Shown here in pieces: positions 8,106-62,873 of a DNA stretch of 64,000 bases. The number at the start of each line of letters is the position of its first letter. Position 1 is the first letter of the stretch. The stretch lies in contig CAAFLY010000061.1 of assembly GCA_900763885.1 (NCBI GenBank), positions 10,553 through 74,552 of the forward strand, in the 5' to 3' direction. Made by a program: the position numbers and the translations under genes. The notes beneath the pieces are model-generated. The model saw nothing but the letters and a program-made list of their open reading frames with translations. It did not search any database and was not told the origin of the DNA. Source of the stretch: Clostridia bacterium (lineage in GTDB: Bacteria > Bacillota > Clostridia > Oscillospirales > CAG-272).

Positions 8106-8128
8106 TTACCCATACGGAAAATTGCATG

Positions 8129-8236
8129 ACAGAGTAGATTTTCGGGCGTAAAGTGCCGGCAAAACGGGGAGTTGTTTGTCGGACGAAGGGGTGTGCGATA
8201 CGCATATGCCGCGGTCCGGATTTCGCATCCCGCTGT
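8129..8236 (+). promoter_or_regulatory. THF (tetrahydrofolate) riboswitch aptamer
   Basis: ACAGAGUAGAUUUUCGGGCGUAAAGUGCCGGC...GUCGGACGAAGGGG...GCCGCGGUCCGGAUUUCGCAUCCCGCUGU carries the THF-I cores (AGAGUAGAU, CGUaAAGUG, ACGAAG, GCGG, GCAUCC-GCU) and a closing P1 ACAGAG/CGCUGU. It lies upstream of folT, the classical target. Confidence 0.8.
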
Positions 8237-8283
8237 ACATAGGAAAGCATCCCACAAATGGCGGTGCTTTCACGAAAAAGACA

Positions 8284-9096: not shown

Positions 9097-10398
9097 ATGC
9101 AGTATGAGGAAGCGATGCAGTATATCCACCGGATCAGCTGGACGGGCAGCCGTCCGGGACTGACGCGGATCGAGGAGCTGTGCGCAAAATTGGGCCATCC
9201 CGAGCGGACGTTGCAGTACATACACGTGGTCGGCACAAACGGGAAGGGATCCTTCTGCCGGATGCTGTCCGCGGTACTGACTGCCGCCGGATACAAAACG
9301 GGGCTGTTCACCTCCCCCTACATCGAAACGTTCAACGAGCGGATGCAGATCGACGGGGAGAATATCGGAAACGATGAGCTTGCCGCGATCACCGGAGAGG
9401 TCAAGCCGTTCGCGGACACCATGGCGGATCCCCCAACGGAATTTGAACTGATCACTGCGGTCGGATTCGAGTATTTCCGCCGGAATCGGTGCGACATTGT
9501 GGTGCTGGAGGCGGGACTGGGCGGCAGACTGGATTCCACAAACGTGATCCCGTCGCCGGAGCTGGTCGTCATCACTGGCATCGACTATGACCACATGGCG
9601 ATCCTCGGCGATACGCTGACGAAAATCGCGGCGGAAAAGGCGGGGGTCATCAAGCCGAAGACGACCGTGCTCTTTGGTGAAGGCGCGCCGGAAGCGGAAT
9701 CTGTGATCCGGGAAACGACGGAGCAAATCTGCGGCAAAAGCGCGTATCATCGCACGGACTACAGCCGGATTGAGCGTCCCGCCACCTCCCTCGACGGCAC
9801 TACGTTCTCGTTCGCGCCGTTTGGGAAGCTGCGCCTGTCCATGCTCGGGATGTATCAGCTTCGCAACGCGGCAAACGTTCTGACCGCCATCGAGCTGCTG
9901 CGGAACAAGGGCTACGCAATCCCGGACGAAGCGGTGCGGCAGGGACTTGCGGGTGCCGAATGGAAGGCACGGTTTGAGATCCTGTCCCGCGATCCGCTCG
10001 TTTTGTACGACGGCGCGCACAATCCACAGGGAATCGCCGCGGCAGAGGAAAACATCCGCCGGTATCTCGCGCCGCTGACGCGATCCGGCAAGGTGGAGCT
10101 ATTGATGGGCGTGCTTGCCGACAAGGACTACCGCGCGATGATCCACGCCGTATCGCCCTATGCCGCGCACGTCGTGACGATCACCCCCACCAGTCCGCGC
10201 GCGCTGGACGCCGCCATGACCGCCGCGATCTTCCGGGAAAACGGCGTGGAGGCGGTTTCGGCGGGATCGGTGGCGGAGGGAGTGCGCCTTGCGGTGGAAG
10301 CTGCCCGAAAAGAAAAGATGCCGCTCTTCATCTTAGGCTCGCTGTATCTGTACGGAGACGTGAAAAAGGCACTTGCCGCAATCCCCGATCTGGCGTAA
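9097..10398 (+). CDS. folC: bifunctional folylpolyglutamate synthase/dihydrofolate synthase
   Basis: HVVGTNGKGS P-loop with the Mur-ligase-like central and C-terminal regions typical of FolC. Confidence 0.9.
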   Translation: MQYEEAMQYIHRISWTGSRPGLTRIEELCAKLGHPERTLQYIHVVGTNGKGSFCRMLSAVLTAAGYKTGLFTSPYIETFNERMQIDGENIGNDELAAITGEVKPFADTMADPPTEFELITAVGFEYFRRNRCDIVVLEAGLGGRLDSTNVIPSPELVVITGIDYDHMAILGDTLTKIAAEKAGVIKPKTTVLFGEGAPEAESVIRETTEQICGKSAYHRTDYSRIERPATSLDGTTFSFAPFGKLRLSMLGMYQLRNAANVLTAIELLRNKGYAIPDEAVRQGLAGAEWKARFEILSRDPLVLYDGAHNPQGIAAAEENIRRYLAPLTRSGKVELLMGVLADKDYRAMIHAVSPYAAHVVTITPTSPRALDAAMTAAIFRENGVEAVSAGSVAEGVRLAVEAARKEKMPLFILGSLYLYGDVKKALAAIPDLA

Positions 10399-28579: not shown

Positions 28580-30862
28580 TCACTTCCGCAGCTCCACTCT
28601 GCGGATCTTACCGGAGATCGTTTTCGGCAGCTCCGGCAAAAATTCCACGATGCGCGGGTATTTGTAGGGCGCTGTATGCTCCTTGACGTAGGTCTGGATC
28701 TCCTTTTTCAGCGCGTCCGAACCTTCCTTACCCTTGACAAGCACAATGGACGCCTTGACGACCTGTCCGCGGATCGGATCGGGAACGGCGGTGATGGCGC
28801 ATTCCAGCACATACGGCAGCTCCATGATCACGGATTCGATCTCAAACGGCCCGATGCGATAGCCGGAGGACTTGATCACATCGTCGATCCGTCCGACATA
28901 CCAGAAATAGCCGTCCTCATCGCGCCATGCCGTGTCGCCGGTGTGGTAATAACCGTCGTGCCATACCTTCTTCGTCGCTTCCTCATCGTGGTAGTAGCCG
29001 AGGAACAGACCGCACGGCACGCCTTCCTTCGTCCGCACCACGATCTCGCCCGTTTCACCGACGTCGCAGGAGCGTCCGTCCGCGTCCACGATATCCACAT
29101 CGTACATGGGCGACGGATGGCCCATCGAGCCCGGCTTCGGCGTGTCTCCGACAAAGTTGCCGATGGTGAGCGTGGTCTCCGTCTGACCGAAGCCCTCCAT
29201 CAGCGACAGGCCCGTATATTCGCGGAACTTGTAGAACACCTCCGGATTGAGCGCTTCTCCGGCGATGGTGGCATGCTTCAGCGAGGACAGATCGTAGTTT
29301 TCGAGATGCTCCTTGATGAAGAAGCGGAACATGGTCGGCGGCGCGCAGAAGGTCGTGATGTGGTACCGGGCAAAGAGCGGCAGCAGATCGTGCGCGTCGA
29401 ATTTGTCAAAGTCATACGCAAACACGCAGCTTTCGCAGAGCCACTGGCCGTACAGCTTGCCCCAGAGCGCCTTGCCCCAGCCGGTATCGGAGATCGTGAA
29501 GTGGATCCCCTCCGGATCGACGTTGTGCCAGTACCGGGCGGTGATATAGTGGCCGAGCGCGTATTTGAAGCTGTGTGCCGCGACCTTCGGGTATCCCGTT
29601 GTACCGGAGGTGAAGAGCATGTACATCGGTTTGTCGCCGCAGACGTCCACACGTCTTTCCCAGGTATCGGGATAGTTCATAAACTCCGTGTCGAAGGAGT
29701 GCCAGCCGTCGCGCTCCCCGTGCGAGATCATCTTGATGAGACCCGGATCGACCGCGGCTGCCGCGTTTTCGGCGTGCATGGCGGTTTCCCCATCGGCGGT
29801 GCAGACAATGGCGCGCACATCGGCGGCCTTGTAGCGGTAGGCGAAATCCTTTTCCACGAGCATGAATGTGGCAGGGATCGCGACCGCGCCGAGCTTATGG
29901 AGTGCCAGAGAGGCGATCCAGAACTGCCAGTGCCGCTTCAGCACGAGCATAACGGTATCCCCCTCGCGGATGCCGAGCGACACGAAATAGTTTGCCGCGC
30001 GGTTGGAGAGCAGAGACAGCTCGCGGAAGGTGAACAGAGTCTCGTTCTTTTCGCGGTCGAGGTGTAAAAGCGCGAGCTTGTCGGGGCATTTTGCGGCAAG
30101 AGCGTCCACAACATCGTAGGCAAAGTTGAACTTGTCCGCGTCGTGGAAGCGGATTTCCTTGAGTTTTCCGTTTTCCTCCACGCATTCGACGAATTTCGCG
30201 GCGACCGGATCCTTCGGCAGAGGCGAGAGGGTGTTGTATTTGACCTCGGGCAGGACAGGGGTTTCCAGATTCTCCGGATAATCGTACGCCGCCGCTCCGC
30301 TTGCGATGATGACAGCGAGGAACCGGCACTCTTCACCGTCCACGGCGATCATACCGTGCGGCTTGGAGCTGTCGTAATAGATGGAGTCGCCCGGTTCCAG
30401 GATCTCCTCATGGCCGTCGATCACGGTTTTCAGTCTGCCGGAGAGGATATAGTCGAATTCATGGCCCTCGTGACGGCTCAGCTTGATCGGTGCGTGCTGC
30501 TCCTCCAGCGAGAAGGGCGCGGTGACGACAAAGGGCTCAACGGTCTTGTTCTTGAACAGCGGCGCCAGGTTTTCATAACGGAAGCCGCGCCGCCGTGCGA
30601 TCGGAAGTCCGCGGCCTGCCCGGGTGATGCTGTATTCCTCCAGCGTCGGACTTTCGCCCTTCAGGAGGTCGGTGGTATCCACGCCGAGCCTTGCAGCGCA
30701 CTTATAAATGAAGGTGAAAGTAAAATCCGTCTCCCCGGCCTCGAGGGTGCGATAATTTTCCAGCGACACGCCGGTGCACTGCGCCATTTCCGCCTCGGAG
30801 ATACCAAGGATCTCTCTCGACTCCCGAATACGGTGCGCGACTTCTTTGATGATCTTTTCCAT
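28580..30862 (-). CDS. three-domain fusion: XRE-type HTH + cupin + AMP-forming acyl-CoA synthetase (ACSM/medium-chain-like)
   Basis: Start MEKIIKEVAHRIRESREILGISEAEMAQCTGVSLENYRTLEAGE (HTH_XRE). Then a cupin (HEGHEFDYILSGRLKTVIDGHEEILEPGDSIYYDSSKPHG). Then an adenylate-forming enzyme (FTSGTTGYPK, YHTGD, SGYRIGPFEIES, PKTISGKIRR). The upstream 56 codons of the ORF overlap the T-box terminator. Confidence 0.85.
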   Translation of the reverse strand: MEKIIKEVAHRIRESREILGISEAEMAQCTGVSLENYRTLEAGETDFTFTFIYKCAARLGVDTTDLLKGESPTLEEYSITRAGRGLPIARRRGFRYENLAPLFKNKTVEPFVVTAPFSLEEQHAPIKLSRHEGHEFDYILSGRLKTVIDGHEEILEPGDSIYYDSSKPHGMIAVDGEECRFLAVIIASGAAAYDYPENLETPVLPEVKYNTLSPLPKDPVAAKFVECVEENGKLKEIRFHDADKFNFAYDVVDALAAKCPDKLALLHLDREKNETLFTFRELSLLSNRAANYFVSLGIREGDTVMLVLKRHWQFWIASLALHKLGAVAIPATFMLVEKDFAYRYKAADVRAIVCTADGETAMHAENAAAAVDPGLIKMISHGERDGWHSFDTEFMNYPDTWERRVDVCGDKPMYMLFTSGTTGYPKVAAHSFKYALGHYITARYWHNVDPEGIHFTISDTGWGKALWGKLYGQWLCESCVFAYDFDKFDAHDLLPLFARYHITTFCAPPTMFRFFIKEHLENYDLSSLKHATIAGEALNPEVFYKFREYTGLSLMEGFGQTETTLTIGNFVGDTPKPGSMGHPSPMYDVDIVDADGRSCDVGETGEIVVRTKEGVPCGLFLGYYHDEEATKKVWHDGYYHTGDTAWRDEDGYFWYVGRIDDVIKSSGYRIGPFEIESVIMELPYVLECAITAVPDPIRGQVVKASIVLVKGKEGSDALKKEIQTYVKEHTAPYKYPRIVEFLPELPKTISGKIRRVELRK

Positions 30863-30914: not shown

Positions 30915-31200
30915 ACAAACAAAAAATCCGCCCCAAAATGCTTTGAGACGGATGATACATCCGCGGTACCACTCAAATTGCATCGTACAGCTGCGATGCC
31001 ACTCTGCGGGTTCAGACAAACCCTCTGCACTCACGCGGCAGCACACGGGGAACGATTACTCAGCGGATGATACGATCACGCCTTTCCTTTCCCGACTCGG
31101 AAGGGATAGAACCGCGTCTCACGATACCTGCATTCCACCACCGCAGGCTCTCTGGCTCGTGCATCAGACAGGATTCCGTCTTCGTCAACGTCTTTCTTTG
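30915..31200 (-). promoter_or_regulatory. T-box riboswitch leader (tRNA-sensing transcription attenuator)
   Basis: Minus strand. Stem I (31192-31094) has a K-turn-like base GAC-GUU-GA-CGAAG / CUUC-C-GA-GUC, an AGAGAG bulge and the CCUGC-GGUGGUGGAAU-GCAGG distal hairpin. T-box core AAUUUGAGUGGUACCGCGG (30980-30961). Antiterminator UUUGAG[UGGUACC]GCGGAU...AUCCGU-CUCAAA competes with terminator AUCCGUCUC/GGGGCGGAU + U6 (30953-30915). Confidence 0.85.
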
Positions 31201-31211
31201 GAAGTGCCTTT

Positions 31212-31240
31212 ATTATAGCACGACGGCTCCTCTTTGTCAA
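31212..31240 (-). promoter_or_regulatory. consensus sigma70 promoter for the T-box leader
   Basis: Minus strand: TTGACA (31240-31235), a 17-nt spacer, then TATAAT (31217-31212) with a TGc extension. Confidence 0.7.
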
Positions 31241-36285: not shown

Positions 36286-37587
36286 TCAGTCGATATTCGC
36301 AAGCACGCCTAAAAAGAGCGGCAGTCCCTCCGGCGTGAGGATCGCGTAGACAAACGGGCGGTCGAATACGATCTCCTTCGGCTCCTCCGGCATAAGGCTT
36401 GTGCATTCCATCACCGCGACCGTTACGGCGGCGGCTTCCGTTCCGCCCTCATCGGTGCGGATCTTTGCCTTCTGGAACATATCGGACACATACGCGCTGT
36501 TCCCGGTGCCGTCCTCGCCGATCCCGGTCAGCTCGGCTTCCGGGGAGAAGAGCGCGGACAGTCCCATATCGGACAGCACATCAAGGAGCGGGATGTCCGC
36601 GTCATACTCGAATTTCGGCAGGGATACGATCACCTTTTCCTGATTTTCGTTTGCCGTATCCCGTGCGGCGAGCAGTGTGTCGGCGGAGAGCGATCCGGCA
36701 AAATCGTACACGTCGCCATCCGGCAAAACCGCGACAAAGGTATAGCCGTTTTCGTAATTCTTGGTAAATCCAACGCCGCCGTCCACGGTGAAATAGCTGT
36801 ATTCCTTGGAATGCATAAAGGACGCGGTCGTGTCTCCGGAAAAACCGTGGAACGTGTCGGACGTGACCGACCATTCGTCATACGGAATCACCCATTTGCC
36901 GTTGAAGTATACCGTATTGGCAAGGACCGCGGCGGCGTCAGGGGTCAGTTCCTTTAAGGTTTCCGGAATCATGCCGTGGGTCGCGTCCGAGATCCATTTG
37001 TTGATCTCACCGACCGATTTCGCGTCCGCGAAGGAAAGCGGCGTGGACTGCGCGTCAAAGTACCGTTTCACCATGGCGGCGTATTCGTCGTGCAGCGTGA
37101 ATCCGACATTGCTGTTGAGCCAGATCCCGTTCGCGATCTCTGTGACCCTGGTGGCGGCAAGAGCTTCTTTCGCGGAGTAGAGACTGTCGTCAAGGGTGAG
37201 AAGGTCGTCGTATCCAAGCACATCGGACAGCGCGGCGGCTGTATCCCCGGCAGCACCGTTCGCGAGTACGGCCAAGAGATTGTAGACGGAATACGGGGAC
37301 AGCACGAGATTTTTTCCGTTCACAAGGGATTTGTGGAAGAGCTTCGTGGAAAAATCGTTCACACCCTGCAAAAACGCGGCGTCCAGGGCGACGGTCTGCG
37401 GATCTCTTCCTGCGGCAGGGAGGCTCTGCGTGTCGGGCTTAGCGTCTGCGGCAGGCTTGTCCGTATCCTTTGCTTCCGCGGCGGGATTGTCTGTGTCCGG
37501 CGTGTCCGATGGCACCGACGCGCAGCCGGCCAGGGTGAAAGAGACGAGCATCGCGGCAAGGATCCGGCGGAATAGCGTTTTTTTCAT
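36286..37587 (-). CDS. serpin-family protease inhibitor, lipoprotein
   Basis: Start MKKTLFRRILAAMLVSFTLAGC (lipobox). The serpin core includes NLVLSPYSVYNLLAVLANGAAGDT, NTVYFNGKW, the inhibitory-type hinge EGGTEAAAVT and C-terminal FDRPFVYAI. Confidence 0.85.
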   Translation of the reverse strand: MKKTLFRRILAAMLVSFTLAGCASVPSDTPDTDNPAAEAKDTDKPAADAKPDTQSLPAAGRDPQTVALDAAFLQGVNDFSTKLFHKSLVNGKNLVLSPYSVYNLLAVLANGAAGDTAAALSDVLGYDDLLTLDDSLYSAKEALAATRVTEIANGIWLNSNVGFTLHDEYAAMVKRYFDAQSTPLSFADAKSVGEINKWISDATHGMIPETLKELTPDAAAVLANTVYFNGKWVIPYDEWSVTSDTFHGFSGDTTASFMHSKEYSYFTVDGGVGFTKNYENGYTFVAVLPDGDVYDFAGSLSADTLLAARDTANENQEKVIVSLPKFEYDADIPLLDVLSDMGLSALFSPEAELTGIGEDGTGNSAYVSDMFQKAKIRTDEGGTEAAAVTVAVMECTSLMPEEPKEIVFDRPFVYAILTPEGLPLFLGVLANID

Positions 37588-37702
37588 ATGATTTTGCACC
37601 TCTTTGGTTGTGGAATCGTTCTGTCTCTTTAGACGGTGCGCGCAAAAAAAAGTTCCATTCCCGCCGGAGCTTTGAGATTTTCTTAAATTCCCGCCATCGC
37701 TC

Positions 37703-37731
37703 TTGTAATTCCGCGCTGGATATGGTATACT
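37703..37731 (+). promoter_or_regulatory. sigma70-type promoter for rimM-trmD
   Basis: TTGTAA (37703-37708), a 17-nt spacer, then TATACT (37726-37731) with a TGg extension. Confidence 0.5.
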
Positions 37732-37780
37732 CATACCATAATAGATAAGATAGAATCGGATAAGGATCAGTTTTTGTTTT

Positions 37781-38308
37781 ATGGCAATGGAAAAGTATCT
37801 CGAATGCGCGAAAATCGTCGGGACACACGGCGTGCGCGGCATGGTGCGGGCGGAATGCTACTGCAATACTCCGGCGGCTCTGGCGAAGCTGAAGCGTGTA
37901 TATATAAAGGAGAGATCCGGTGAATACCGGGAAACAAAGGTGCTGCGCGGCGCGGTGCAGAAGACGATGGTCCTCTTTGCACTCGATGGTGTGGACACTC
38001 TGGAAGCGGCGATCCCCCTGAAGGGAACGATCCTGTACGCCGACCGCGCGGATTTTCGTCTCCGTCCGGGAGAGGTGTTCATCGCGGACCTTATCGGGCT
38101 GCCCGTGATCGACAACGACAGCGGCGAGAGCTACGGTACGCTCTCCGACATCACCACCGCCGGCGTACAGGAGCTGTATGTGGTGGAAACGGAGGGCGGT
38201 GCGCGCTTTATGATCCCCGGCGTACCTGCGTTTATCAAGCGGCGCGTCACAGAGGGCGAGGATGCCGGGATCTACGTCACACTGATTGAGGGGATGCGCG
38301 AGGTATGA
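37781..38308 (+). CDS. rimM: ribosome maturation factor RimM
   Basis: KIVGTHGVRGMVR... and the PRC-barrel C-terminus. The stop overlaps the trmD start (ATGA). Confidence 0.85.
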   Translation: MAMEKYLECAKIVGTHGVRGMVRAECYCNTPAALAKLKRVYIKERSGEYRETKVLRGAVQKTMVLFALDGVDTLEAAIPLKGTILYADRADFRLRPGEVFIADLIGLPVIDNDSGESYGTLSDITTAGVQELYVVETEGGARFMIPGVPAFIKRRVTEGEDAGIYVTLIEGMREV

Positions 38309-62677: not shown

Positions 62678-62763
62678 GCCGGAGTGGCGGAATTGGCAGA
62701 CGCCCGGGACTTAAAATCCCGTGTAACGAGAGTTACGTACCGGTTCGAGCCCGGTTTCCGGCA
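62678..62763 (+). tRNA. tRNA-Leu (anticodon UAA)
   Basis: Hand-folded cloverleaf: acceptor GCCGGAG/TTCCGGC, anticodon arm CGGGA-CTTAAAA-TCCCG, long variable arm GTAAC..GTTAC, T arm ACCGG-TTCGAGC-CCGGT. CCA is not encoded. Confidence 0.85.

Positions 62764-62795: not shown

Positions 62796-62873
<78 letters not shown>

Follow-up and report, generated by a model that had tools for sequence, protein, structure and literature searches.

A stretch of 64,000 nucleotides (nt) from a Clostridia bacterium (contig CAAFLY010000061.1, positions 10,553 to 74,552; referred to below as the window) carries on its minus strand a T-box leader RNA followed by a gene encoding a fusion of a helix-turn-helix (HTH) domain, a cupin domain and an AMP-forming acyl-coenzyme A (acyl-CoA) synthetase. 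Comparison with orthologous loci suggests that the leader responds to tRNA-Ile, and that the enzyme encoded downstream most likely activates 2-methylbutyrate. The elements composing the leader are as follows.

31240-31235 (TTGACA) and 31217-31212 (TATAAT), minus strand: sigma-70-type promoter, 17-nt spacer with TG (extended -10), 12 of 12 consensus matches
30920..31197, minus strand: complete transcriptional T-box leader, composed of Stem I, Stem II, Stem IIA/B, an extra hairpin, Stem III and an antiterminator/terminator pair
31093..31192, minus strand: Stem I, with kink-turn (K-turn) base (UGA...GA), minimal specifier loop, AGAGAG bulge and distal loop (minimum free energy (MFE) fold, alignment and covariation)
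31153-31148, minus strand: AGAGAG bulge within Stem I
31142-31132, minus strand: distal loop GGUGGUGGAAU, which with the AG bulge makes up the tRNA-elbow platform
31107-31105, minus strand: specifier codon AUC (Ile); a single C separates it from the CUUC of the basal helix
~31092-31047, minus strand: Stem II with AGUA S-turn, including GAGUAAUCG (RF00230 alignment and direct reading, as for the next three)
~31046-31030, minus strand: Stem IIA/B region
31029-31002, minus strand: lineage-specific extra hairpin
31000-30980, minus strand: Stem III
30977-30942, minus strand: antiterminator UUUGAG [UGGUACC] GCGGAUG-UAU-CAUCCGU CUCAAA (fold of 30941-30985, -12 kcal/mol)
30971-30965, minus strand: 7-nt T-box bulge UGGUACC, of which UGGU is the partner of the tRNA 3' end, A73-CCA
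30953-30926, with U6 at 30925-30920, minus strand: intrinsic terminator, 12-bp stem AUCCGUCUCAAA/UUUGGGGCGGAU, loop GCAU (z = -4.1 for 30915-30963)
30875-30871, minus strand: ribosome-binding site AGGAG, upstream of the ATG at 30862

Anatomy of the leader RNA

A first-pass annotation, made from the letters of the window alone, had described a perfect TTGACA-17-TATAAT promoter followed by a complete T-box with a K-turn-like base, an AGAGAG bulge and a distal loop, and each of these elements was recovered where it had been placed on the minus strand. The antiterminator consists of helix A1 (UUUGAG/CUCAAA) and helix A2 (GCGGAUG/CAUCCGU), and because its 3' strand doubles as the 5' strand of the terminator, the two structures are mutually exclusive, as had likewise been proposed. 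The conserved T-box sequence AAUUUGAGUGGUACCGCGG is present together with the 7-nt UGGN bulge by which the class is recognized. In the MFE fold of Stem I the specifier loop displays AC on its 5' side and AUCC (AUC plus C) on its 3' side; with only AC on the 5' side, the earlier remark that no obvious AGUA/GAA S-turn is seen in Stem I holds.

A scan of the whole window with Rfam at gathering thresholds reported no T-box, and only a tetrahydrofolate (THF) riboswitch and two tRNAs. In a permissive local scan, RF00230 was matched over the full model (positions 1-219) at 30941-31197 on the minus strand, with 70.2 bits and an E value of 4.3e-15; the default scan missed the leader because this score lies below the RF00230 gathering score of 93 bits, which is a curation cut-off rather than a structural feature. 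The match is sub-threshold yet far from chance, and the expectation of a significant RF00230 hit was thus upheld as regards length and significance but not as regards the gathering score.

The fusion gene and its ligase domain

Comparison with Pfam, NCBIfam and the PDB resolves the encoded protein into three domains.

28580..30862, minus strand, ATG at 30862: coding sequence of the HTH-cupin-ligase fusion, 760 amino acids (aa)
aa 8-72, nt 30841-30647, minus strand: XRE-type HTH (Pfam HTH_3, 23.8 bits, cut-off 23)
aa 116-190, nt 30517-30293, minus strand: Cupin_2 (Pfam, 54.7 bits)
aa 245-760, nt 30130-28583, minus strand: AMP-forming acyl-CoA synthetase (PF00501, 203 bits; PF13193, 77 bits)

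The names given to this family in databases are generic ('AMP-binding protein', 'cupin domain-containing protein', 'acetyl-CoA synthetase'). Its core ligase motifs, TSGTTGYPK, GFGQTET, YHTGD and PKTISGKI, are intact when aligned with PDB entry 3ETC, the medium-chain acyl-CoA synthetase MacsMa of Methanosarcina acetivorans, which is also the closest solved structure (660 bits, the next match scoring 365 bits) and shares 54% identity over 517 residues, that is, over the whole ligase domain. Among NCBIfam models the best is MbcS (NF047394), the methylbutyryl-CoA synthetase of Staphylococcus aureus, whose equivalog cut-off of 850 bits lies well above the 438 bits scored here, so that the window enzyme is related to MbcS without being an MbcS equivalog. 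According to PMC10455477, MacsMa prefers 2-methylbutyrate and completes both half-reactions to the acyl-CoA with that substrate, while the acyl-adenylates that it forms from many other substrates are unsuited to the second step; S. aureus MbcS is selective for 2-methylbutyrate and isobutyrate (PMC10026030).

In an alignment with E. coli Acs and MacsMa, the Gly of GFGQTET falls at Trp414 of Acs, and the alternate Trp of MacsMa, Trp259, is conserved; the roles of these pocket residues are those described in PMC10455477. With this Gly, the alternate Trp and, where Acs has Val310, a small residue, the window enzyme has the features of an enlarged acyl pocket. On these grounds the gene product is a short/medium-chain acyl-CoA synthetase of the MacsMa/MbcS type and most likely activates 2-methylbutyrate.

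Conservation of the leader-gene pairing

Scanning one genome per species yielded more than 590 proteins related to the fusion, and the best 80 (58-82% identity) were taken as orthologous loci. These derive from Oscillospiraceae, Ruminococcus (including metagenome-assembled genomes (MAGs) of R. flavefaciens), Christensenellaceae, Acutalibacteraceae and other gut or rumen Clostridia, with Neglectibacter timonensis as a cultured carrier. An exact or near-exact T-box core, TGGTACCGCG, lies within 600 nt upstream of the gene in 63 of the 80 loci, always with UGGU in the bulge; as five loci are too short upstream, this amounts to 63 of the 75 with enough upstream sequence. Strong promoters equivalent to that of the window precede almost all of the orthologous leaders. 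All eight leaders sampled for the purpose are full-length matches to RF00230 (53-112 bits), and two of them (L052 and L068) exceed the gathering score, the low scores of these leaders being due to the absence of the Stem I S-turn and to variable insertions. Taken together, these data show that the leader belongs to a bona fide T-box lineage that is often missed at standard thresholds. They also bear out two parts of the first-pass annotation, namely that the leader is conserved ahead of orthologous fusion genes and that a T-box controls an AMP-forming acyl-CoA synthetase fusion gene, since the pairing is maintained across Oscillospiraceae, Ruminococcus, Christensenellaceae and related MAGs.

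The T-box-less loci form one Ruminococcus sub-clade (L021-L023, L025, L028-L030 and L033-L037). Here a strong promoter is found approximately 260 nt upstream of the gene, followed by a leader of approximately 100-130 nt with a conserved start, 'GTAAGCAC', and, in several of the loci, a perfect palindrome, GCTTTAAAGC; no Rfam family is matched upstream of these twelve genes. This leader may be a hitherto undescribed RNA element, or it may serve the fused HTH as an operator.

Specifier codon and cognate tRNA

The register of the specifier is given by the basal helix GAAG/CUUC and the K-turn (UGA...GA), the codon being a trinucleotide followed by one variable base and then by CUUC. Specifiers were called by the anchored rule codon+N+CUUC(C/U)GAG combined with reading by eye; a generic script that located them by complementarity alone was dropped, as it mis-parsed about one quarter of the leaders. 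Called in this manner, the specifier reads AUC in 54 of the 58 primary leaders whose Stem I falls inside the locus, and a valine codon, GUC or GUA, in the other four (L047, L050, L066 and L068). In an alignment of 44 Stem I sequences it occupies columns 95-97 (A40/G4, U44, C42/A2), and the flanking columns vary. Of these 44 leaders, 40-43 have AC on the 5' side of the specifier loop, and no GAA stands ahead of the codon; the base 3' of the codon is A (20 leaders), C (18), G (5) or U (1).

Support for this register is found in the flanking helices. MAFFT and RNAalifold, applied to the 44 Stem I segments, recovered the distal helix only, and for this reason the helices were entered by hand for the covariation counts. 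Around the specifier loop 88% of cells pair, versus 26-47% when the partners are slid, both sides change in 14 of 18 pairs, and the observed covariation score was reached by none of 500 shuffles. The window AUC further fits the rule of the TBDB database, which takes the specifier from positions 2-4 of the specifier bulge, counted from its 3' end, and in which AUC is preferred for Ile (PMC7778990). Since the window specifier is AUC at 31107-31105, the cognate ligand is predicted to be tRNA-Ile, and the leader is, on this comparative evidence, a T-box specific for that tRNA. The UGGU bulge calls for discriminator A73, which bacterial tRNA-Ile and tRNA-Val carry; one Ruminococcus tRNA-Val(UAC) ends in ...A-CCA and has the A73 that the bulge requires. 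The tRNA genes adjoining some of the loci are those for Thr, Tyr, Val, Asp, Phe and Gly, with no cognate tRNA-Ile among them.

Three specifiers had been put forward at first pass; the comparative analysis selected AUC (Ile), whereas UUC (Phe, 31111-31109) and CGC (Arg, 31116-31114) were rejected, their columns not being conserved. A leader that answers to tRNA-Phe or tRNA-Arg, or one that has decayed to a constitutive relic so that its link to isoleucine is spurious, would account for the RF00230 score below the gathering threshold, for the missing canonical S-turn and for the low posterior probability with which cmscan aligns the specifier region. Such a leader would not, however, be expected to hold AUC in a fixed register that changes only to Val codons, to retain covarying helices around it along with an intact terminator and antiterminator, or to vary in specifier type together with a residue of the enzyme pocket, as described below, and we regard this explanation as very improbable.

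Tandem paralogues and a pocket-residue switch

The commonest neighbour of the orthologous genes is a second HTH-cupin-ligase copy on the same strand, with its own promoter and its own T-box. At least 14 loci follow the order T-box(AUC)-ligase 1, then T-box(GUA or GUC)-ligase 2, and on one further contig an Ile-type and a Val-type gene (L009 and L068, respectively) are convergent.

L039, L046, L048, L055, L059, L061, L062, L066, L069, L073-L075, L077, L080: tandem Ile/Val loci
29474..29476 of the window, minus strand: Gly463 codon (motif DTGW[G/A]K); Gly in 55 of 55 Ile-type and Ala in 16 of 16 Val-type proteins, Gly in MacsMa

The 55 Ile-type and the 16 Val-type proteins differ strictly by group at three positions only: K54R and K106R, both of which fall in the N-terminal module, and Gly463 to Ala, the sole strict difference in the catalytic domain. 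In the alignment with E. coli Acs, residue 463 corresponds to Val310 and the Gly of GFGQTET to Trp414. Val310 is reported to be one of the four acetate-pocket residues of Acs (Gulick 2003; Ingram-Smith 2006). The change from Gly to Ala would shrink the pocket by one methyl group, which fits isobutyrate (C4, Val) as compared with 2-methylbutyrate (C5, Ile). Together with the homology to MacsMa, this switch leads us to infer a preference for 2-methylbutyrate in the Ile type and for isobutyrate in the Val type.

Firstly, the Val-type protein of L068 is sister to the Ile-type protein of L009 (Ala and Gly, respectively; 98% bootstrap), and secondly, Val-type sequences occupy at least three places in a neighbour-joining tree. 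The Val type therefore arose at least twice, and the correlation between specifier and pocket residue is not a single phylogenetic event. One nucleotide substitution is sufficient for each of the two changes, AUC to GUC and the Gly codon to an Ala codon.

In L075 (5419-6870, plus strand) and five other loci, the Ile-T-box and Val-T-box ligase genes flank a gene whose 483-aa product combines an ACT domain with a metallo-beta-lactamase fold. This gene is on the same strand as ligase 1 and is possibly co-transcribed with it.

Leucine-type T-boxes ahead of a second ligase family

In locus L043 (1-2540, minus strand), a canonical T-box (AGUAGUA ... GAA-CUC-A, Leu) is encoded divergently from the Ile-T-box ligase gene and precedes a different ligase, in which a xylose-isomerase-like TIM barrel is joined to a PRK12583-family AMP-binding domain. 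A metagenome scan with this TIM-barrel-ligase returned 80 relatives, 77 of them with enough upstream sequence. A T-box core was found upstream of 11 of the 80, and about 66 of the 77 have no T-box. For nine of the 11 the retrieved sequence includes Stem I; eight of these, in three leader types, read CUC, while the ninth (L139) reads CAC in a variant basal helix.

L127, L130-L132, L134, L136, L141, L155: CUC-reading TIM-barrel-ligase loci

At four further loci (L085-L087 and L090) the TIM-barrel-ligase gene follows a gene for an unfused MacsMa-like ligase. To judge from these leaders, acyl-CoA ligases occur under T-box control for Ile, Val and Leu, sporadically so in the Leu-type family. Independently of the leader, the substrate class is supported by three observations, namely the homology to MacsMa, the pocket residue of the Val paralogues and the Leu T-boxes before another ligase. 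Of the acids suggested at first pass, those of the 2-methylbutyrate class are favoured by the same evidence, whereas phenylacetate, and with it Phe, found no support.

The N-terminal HTH-cupin module

Across the orthologues, the HTH and the cupin average 56% and 51% identity to the window protein, respectively, compared with 66-83% for the ligase domain. The N-terminal module is nonetheless under purifying selection, with R11, R16, H131, E135 and H169 invariant; the last three compose a triad of the 2-His-1-Glu type in the cupin (window 30293-30517, minus strand). An AlphaFold2 model of the module displays a confident five-helix HTH (helices in 2-67) and a cupin barrel (106-188). The top Foldseek match is 1Y9Q, an HTH_3-cupin transcription regulator that is the closest match in sequence as well, and close behind stand HppE, HEPD and MPnS, metal enzymes with an HTH-like plus cupin layout. 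Given the invariant triad and the Fe(II) enzymes among its structural neighbours, the module may bind metal.

Stand-alone relatives of the module, of about 185 aa, are common in an exhaustive search. In one split version (L165), a gene for a 192-aa HTH-cupin protein (748-1326) sits 12 nt upstream of an independent MacsMa-like ligase gene (1338-2510); identities to the window protein are 54% for the HTH-cupin part and 52% for the ligase, the pocket residue is Gly, and the genes are preceded by a plain A/T-rich promoter region with no T-box. As this locus keeps both parts as adjoining genes, module and ligase appear to be functional partners even when unfused.

These observations raise the question of whether the T-box sets the level of a DNA-binding protein rather than of an enzyme. 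The ligase would then be the sensor of the HTH-cupin protein, for example by way of an acyl-AMP as in BirA, and isoleucine starvation would reprogramme a wider regulon, the CoA-ester output being secondary. The selection acting on the module, its likeness to the regulator 1Y9Q, the stand-alone relatives, one of them encoded next to a ligase gene, and the location of two of the three strict Ile/Val positions (K54R and K106R) in the module would all be in keeping with such a trigger enzyme. It is nevertheless the ligase domain that is best conserved, with all catalytic motifs intact, the layout of the module is shared with enzymes that do not bind DNA (HppE, HEPD and MPnS), and no shared operator motif for the fused HTH was recognized in the promoter regions, where only A/T-rich UP-like elements are common. 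We consider it improbable that this is the chief role of the gene, and the proposal in any case adds to the explanation preferred here, the supply of isoleucine from 2-methylbutyrate, rather than competing with it.

Proposed mechanism and the fate of the acyl-CoA

From the anatomy of the RNA, its specifier, the conserved pairing of leader and gene, the family to which the enzyme belongs and the co-variation of specifier and pocket residue, we infer tRNA-dependent read-through, the substrate, the fate of the acyl-CoA and a role for the HTH-cupin module. When tRNA-Ile is charged, the 12-bp terminator would form and transcription would end approximately 60 nt ahead of the gene. Uncharged tRNA-Ile would dock on Stem I via its anticodon and elbow, and its free 3' end would stabilise the antiterminator such that polymerase enters the gene. 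The ligase would turn exogenous 2-methylbutyrate into 2-methylbutyryl-CoA, a ferredoxin-dependent 2-oxoacid oxidoreductase would reductively carboxylate this thioester to 2-oxo-3-methylvalerate, and transamination would yield isoleucine; isoleucine starvation would thereby switch on the scavenging of a precursor. Val-T-box paralogues with the Ala pocket would do likewise for isobutyrate and valine. To this reading as a whole, in which a tRNA-Ile T-box attenuator drives 2-methylbutyrate activation for isoleucine supply, we assign a probability of about 0.7. The metabolic steps that it invokes are described in rumen microbes, in which 2-methylbutyrate gives Ile, isobutyrate Val and isovalerate Leu by carboxylation followed by amination (PMC7356843); that source bases these routes on Robinson & Allison 1969, Allison & Peel 1971 and Allison et al. 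1966. The same precursor relations of the branched acids are stated for methanogens (PMC10658910).

Several observations weigh against this reading. The AGUA/GAA S-turn of Stem I, a conserved if not a defining feature of T-boxes, is absent throughout the family (that of Stem II is present), and the base 3' of the window specifier is C rather than the usual purine. The window leader falls short of the RF00230 gathering score, and the enzyme falls short of the MbcS equivalog cut-off. The twelve Ruminococcus orthologues described above have the Ile-like Gly but no T-box. In addition, no 2-oxoacid:ferredoxin oxidoreductase (VOR), transaminase or ilv gene is found in the window, and none recurs in the flanks of the 80 orthologous loci, so that the link to isoleucine synthesis is without support from genomic context.

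The lack of a VOR or transaminase gene nearby would equally suit a role in lipid synthesis, in which the same switch and enzyme provide 2-methylbutyryl-CoA or isobutyryl-CoA to prime FabH for anteiso and iso branched-chain fatty acids. A scarcity of Ile or Val would cut the primer derived from these amino acids, and the T-box would turn on acid scavenging for membranes. MbcS, the best NCBIfam model, supplies branched-chain fatty acid primers from 2-methylbutyrate and isobutyrate (PMC10026030 and PMC11167679), and a pairing of specifier with substrate as seen here (Ile, anteiso-C5; Val, iso-C4) would be expected equally under either role. T-boxes, however, sense tRNA charging, that is, the supply for translation, and the targets described in surveys all raise the cognate aminoacyl-tRNA pool (PMC2494555; PMC3766115). 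The conversion of branched acids to branched-chain amino acids is, moreover, documented in rumen microbes (PMC7356843). We therefore judge a lipid role in place of isoleucine supply to be unlikely, and the two uses may coexist, the acyl-CoA being their branch point.

The isoleucine-supply reading can be extended, tentatively and at less than even odds, to a modular regulon for precursor-acid salvage in which specifiers co-evolve with pockets: AUC, Gly and 2-methylbutyrate; GUA or GUC, Ala and isobutyrate; CUC, another ligase and isovalerate. The genes of such a regulon would be the missing activation genes for branched-chain volatile fatty acids in rumen and gut Clostridia, and a metal-type HTH-cupin module would add a second sensor at the protein level, so that expression would be set both by tRNA charging and by a small molecule.

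Genomic surroundings in the window

Downstream of the ligase gene, on the same strand, lie mscS and the genes for aconitase and NADP-isocitrate dehydrogenase, and upstream, divergently oriented, is a gene for a GH38 mannosidase. No clear intrinsic terminator was found between the ligase gene and mscS, which has a promoter-like site of its own; the T-box unit is probably monocistronic. The leader contains the only exact T-box core in the window. A class-Ib aminoacyl-tRNA synthetase gene further downstream (start 19672) has a short leader only and no T-box, and a gene for a small alarmone synthetase with a RelA/SpoT domain also lies downstream of the locus. Genes for bacterial serpins occur near the locus in the window (36286-37842, minus strand) and in L081 (3276-4577).

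8128-8237, plus strand: THF riboswitch (75 bits), upstream of a gene for a component of an ECF-type transporter and of a folylpolyglutamate synthase-like gene (9097-10398), an ordinary arrangement
62678-62763 and 62796-62870, plus strand: two tRNA genes, neither for tRNA-Ile, one with a long variable arm (Leu-like) and the other with anticodon CAU and a C1-A72 mismatch as in initiator tRNA

Implications

For rumen cellulolytic bacteria, and for many Clostridia of the gut, isobutyrate, 2-methylbutyrate and isovalerate are either required or beneficial, and labelling in the 1960s established that these acids become valine, isoleucine and leucine, respectively. To our knowledge, no genes have yet been assigned to the step that activates them. 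A tRNA-Ile switch ahead of a MacsMa-like ligase singles out a concrete family of candidate genes for this step, with thousands of members now labelled only 'AMP-binding protein' or 'acetyl-CoA synthetase', and an old physiological question thereby becomes directly testable. Since sister genes under a Val switch differ by one pocket residue, the specifier would serve as a built-in functional label for each copy. Standard annotation misses these leaders because most score below the Rfam gathering threshold. The T-box regulon would be extended to the uptake and activation of carboxylic-acid precursors, with relevance to the supplementation of ruminants with branched-chain fatty acids and to the turnover of these acids in the human gut.

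Comparison with known systems

The closest counterparts of the leader are the branched-chain T-boxes, such as the ileS, valS and leuS leaders and that of B. subtilis ilv-leu. Common to both are the K-turn, the specifier loop, the platform of AG bulge and distal loop, the Stem II S-turn, Stem IIA/B, Stem III, the 7-nt UGGN bulge and the competing antiterminator and terminator, and AUC is the usual Ile specifier. The window lineage differs in its minimal specifier loop (AC opposite N-codon-N), in lacking the AGUA/GAA S-turn and in often having C after the codon, and many of its members score under the Rfam gathering threshold. Whereas the known leaders gate an aminoacyl-tRNA synthetase, a biosynthetic operon or a transporter, that of the window gates an acyl-CoA synthetase.

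On the side of the enzyme, MacsMa and the window ligase have in common the Gly for Acs Trp414, the alternate Trp259 and the Gly at the position of Acs Val310. MacsMa differs in being archaeal and in lacking the N-terminal HTH-cupin module, and no T-box would be expected ahead of its gene, the distribution of T-boxes in PMC3766115 being bacterial. MbcS resembles the family in that its two acids are those proposed for the Ile-type and Val-type paralogues, but MbcS takes both acids as a single enzyme and feeds fatty-acid synthesis, and it has no HTH-cupin fusion; T-box control is unmentioned in the passages of PMC10026030 consulted. The HTH plus cupin fold of 1Y9Q and HppE matches the N-terminal module. 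BirA and PutA are trigger enzymes with a fused DNA-binding domain, and regulators of the PuuR type combine HTH and cupin; BirA, an adenylate-forming enzyme with an N-terminal HTH, may be seen as an analogue that recalls the window fusion. No characterised protein was found with the order HTH-cupin-ANL ligase.

Non-classical T-box targets do exist. One is the B. subtilis gene rtpA, encoding anti-TRAP, which is preceded by a Trp T-box. Another is the ubiG-mccBA operon of C. acetobutylicum, with a Cys T-box (PMC2566862). Neither is a synthetase or core biosynthesis gene, yet both still serve the supply of the cognate amino acid. These targets are interconversion or regulatory genes, whereas the window target would activate an exogenous carboxylic-acid precursor, and in the window lineage, unlike in these two systems, the specifier co-evolves with the substrate pocket of the enzyme. 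A full-text search of the literature returned nothing tying T-boxes to 2-methylbutyrate, to isobutyrate/valine, to VOR or to a CoA ligase, an earlier mention in Vitreschak 2008 or Gutierrez-Preciado 2009 being possible, and no CoA ligase figures in the regulon tables of Wels 2008 or of Sun 2013, in agreement with the first-pass view that an acyl-CoA ligase stands outside the known T-box regulon. Mechanistically, then, the RNA is an ordinary T-box; what is new is the class of gene that it regulates and the co-variation of its specifier with a residue of the enzyme pocket.

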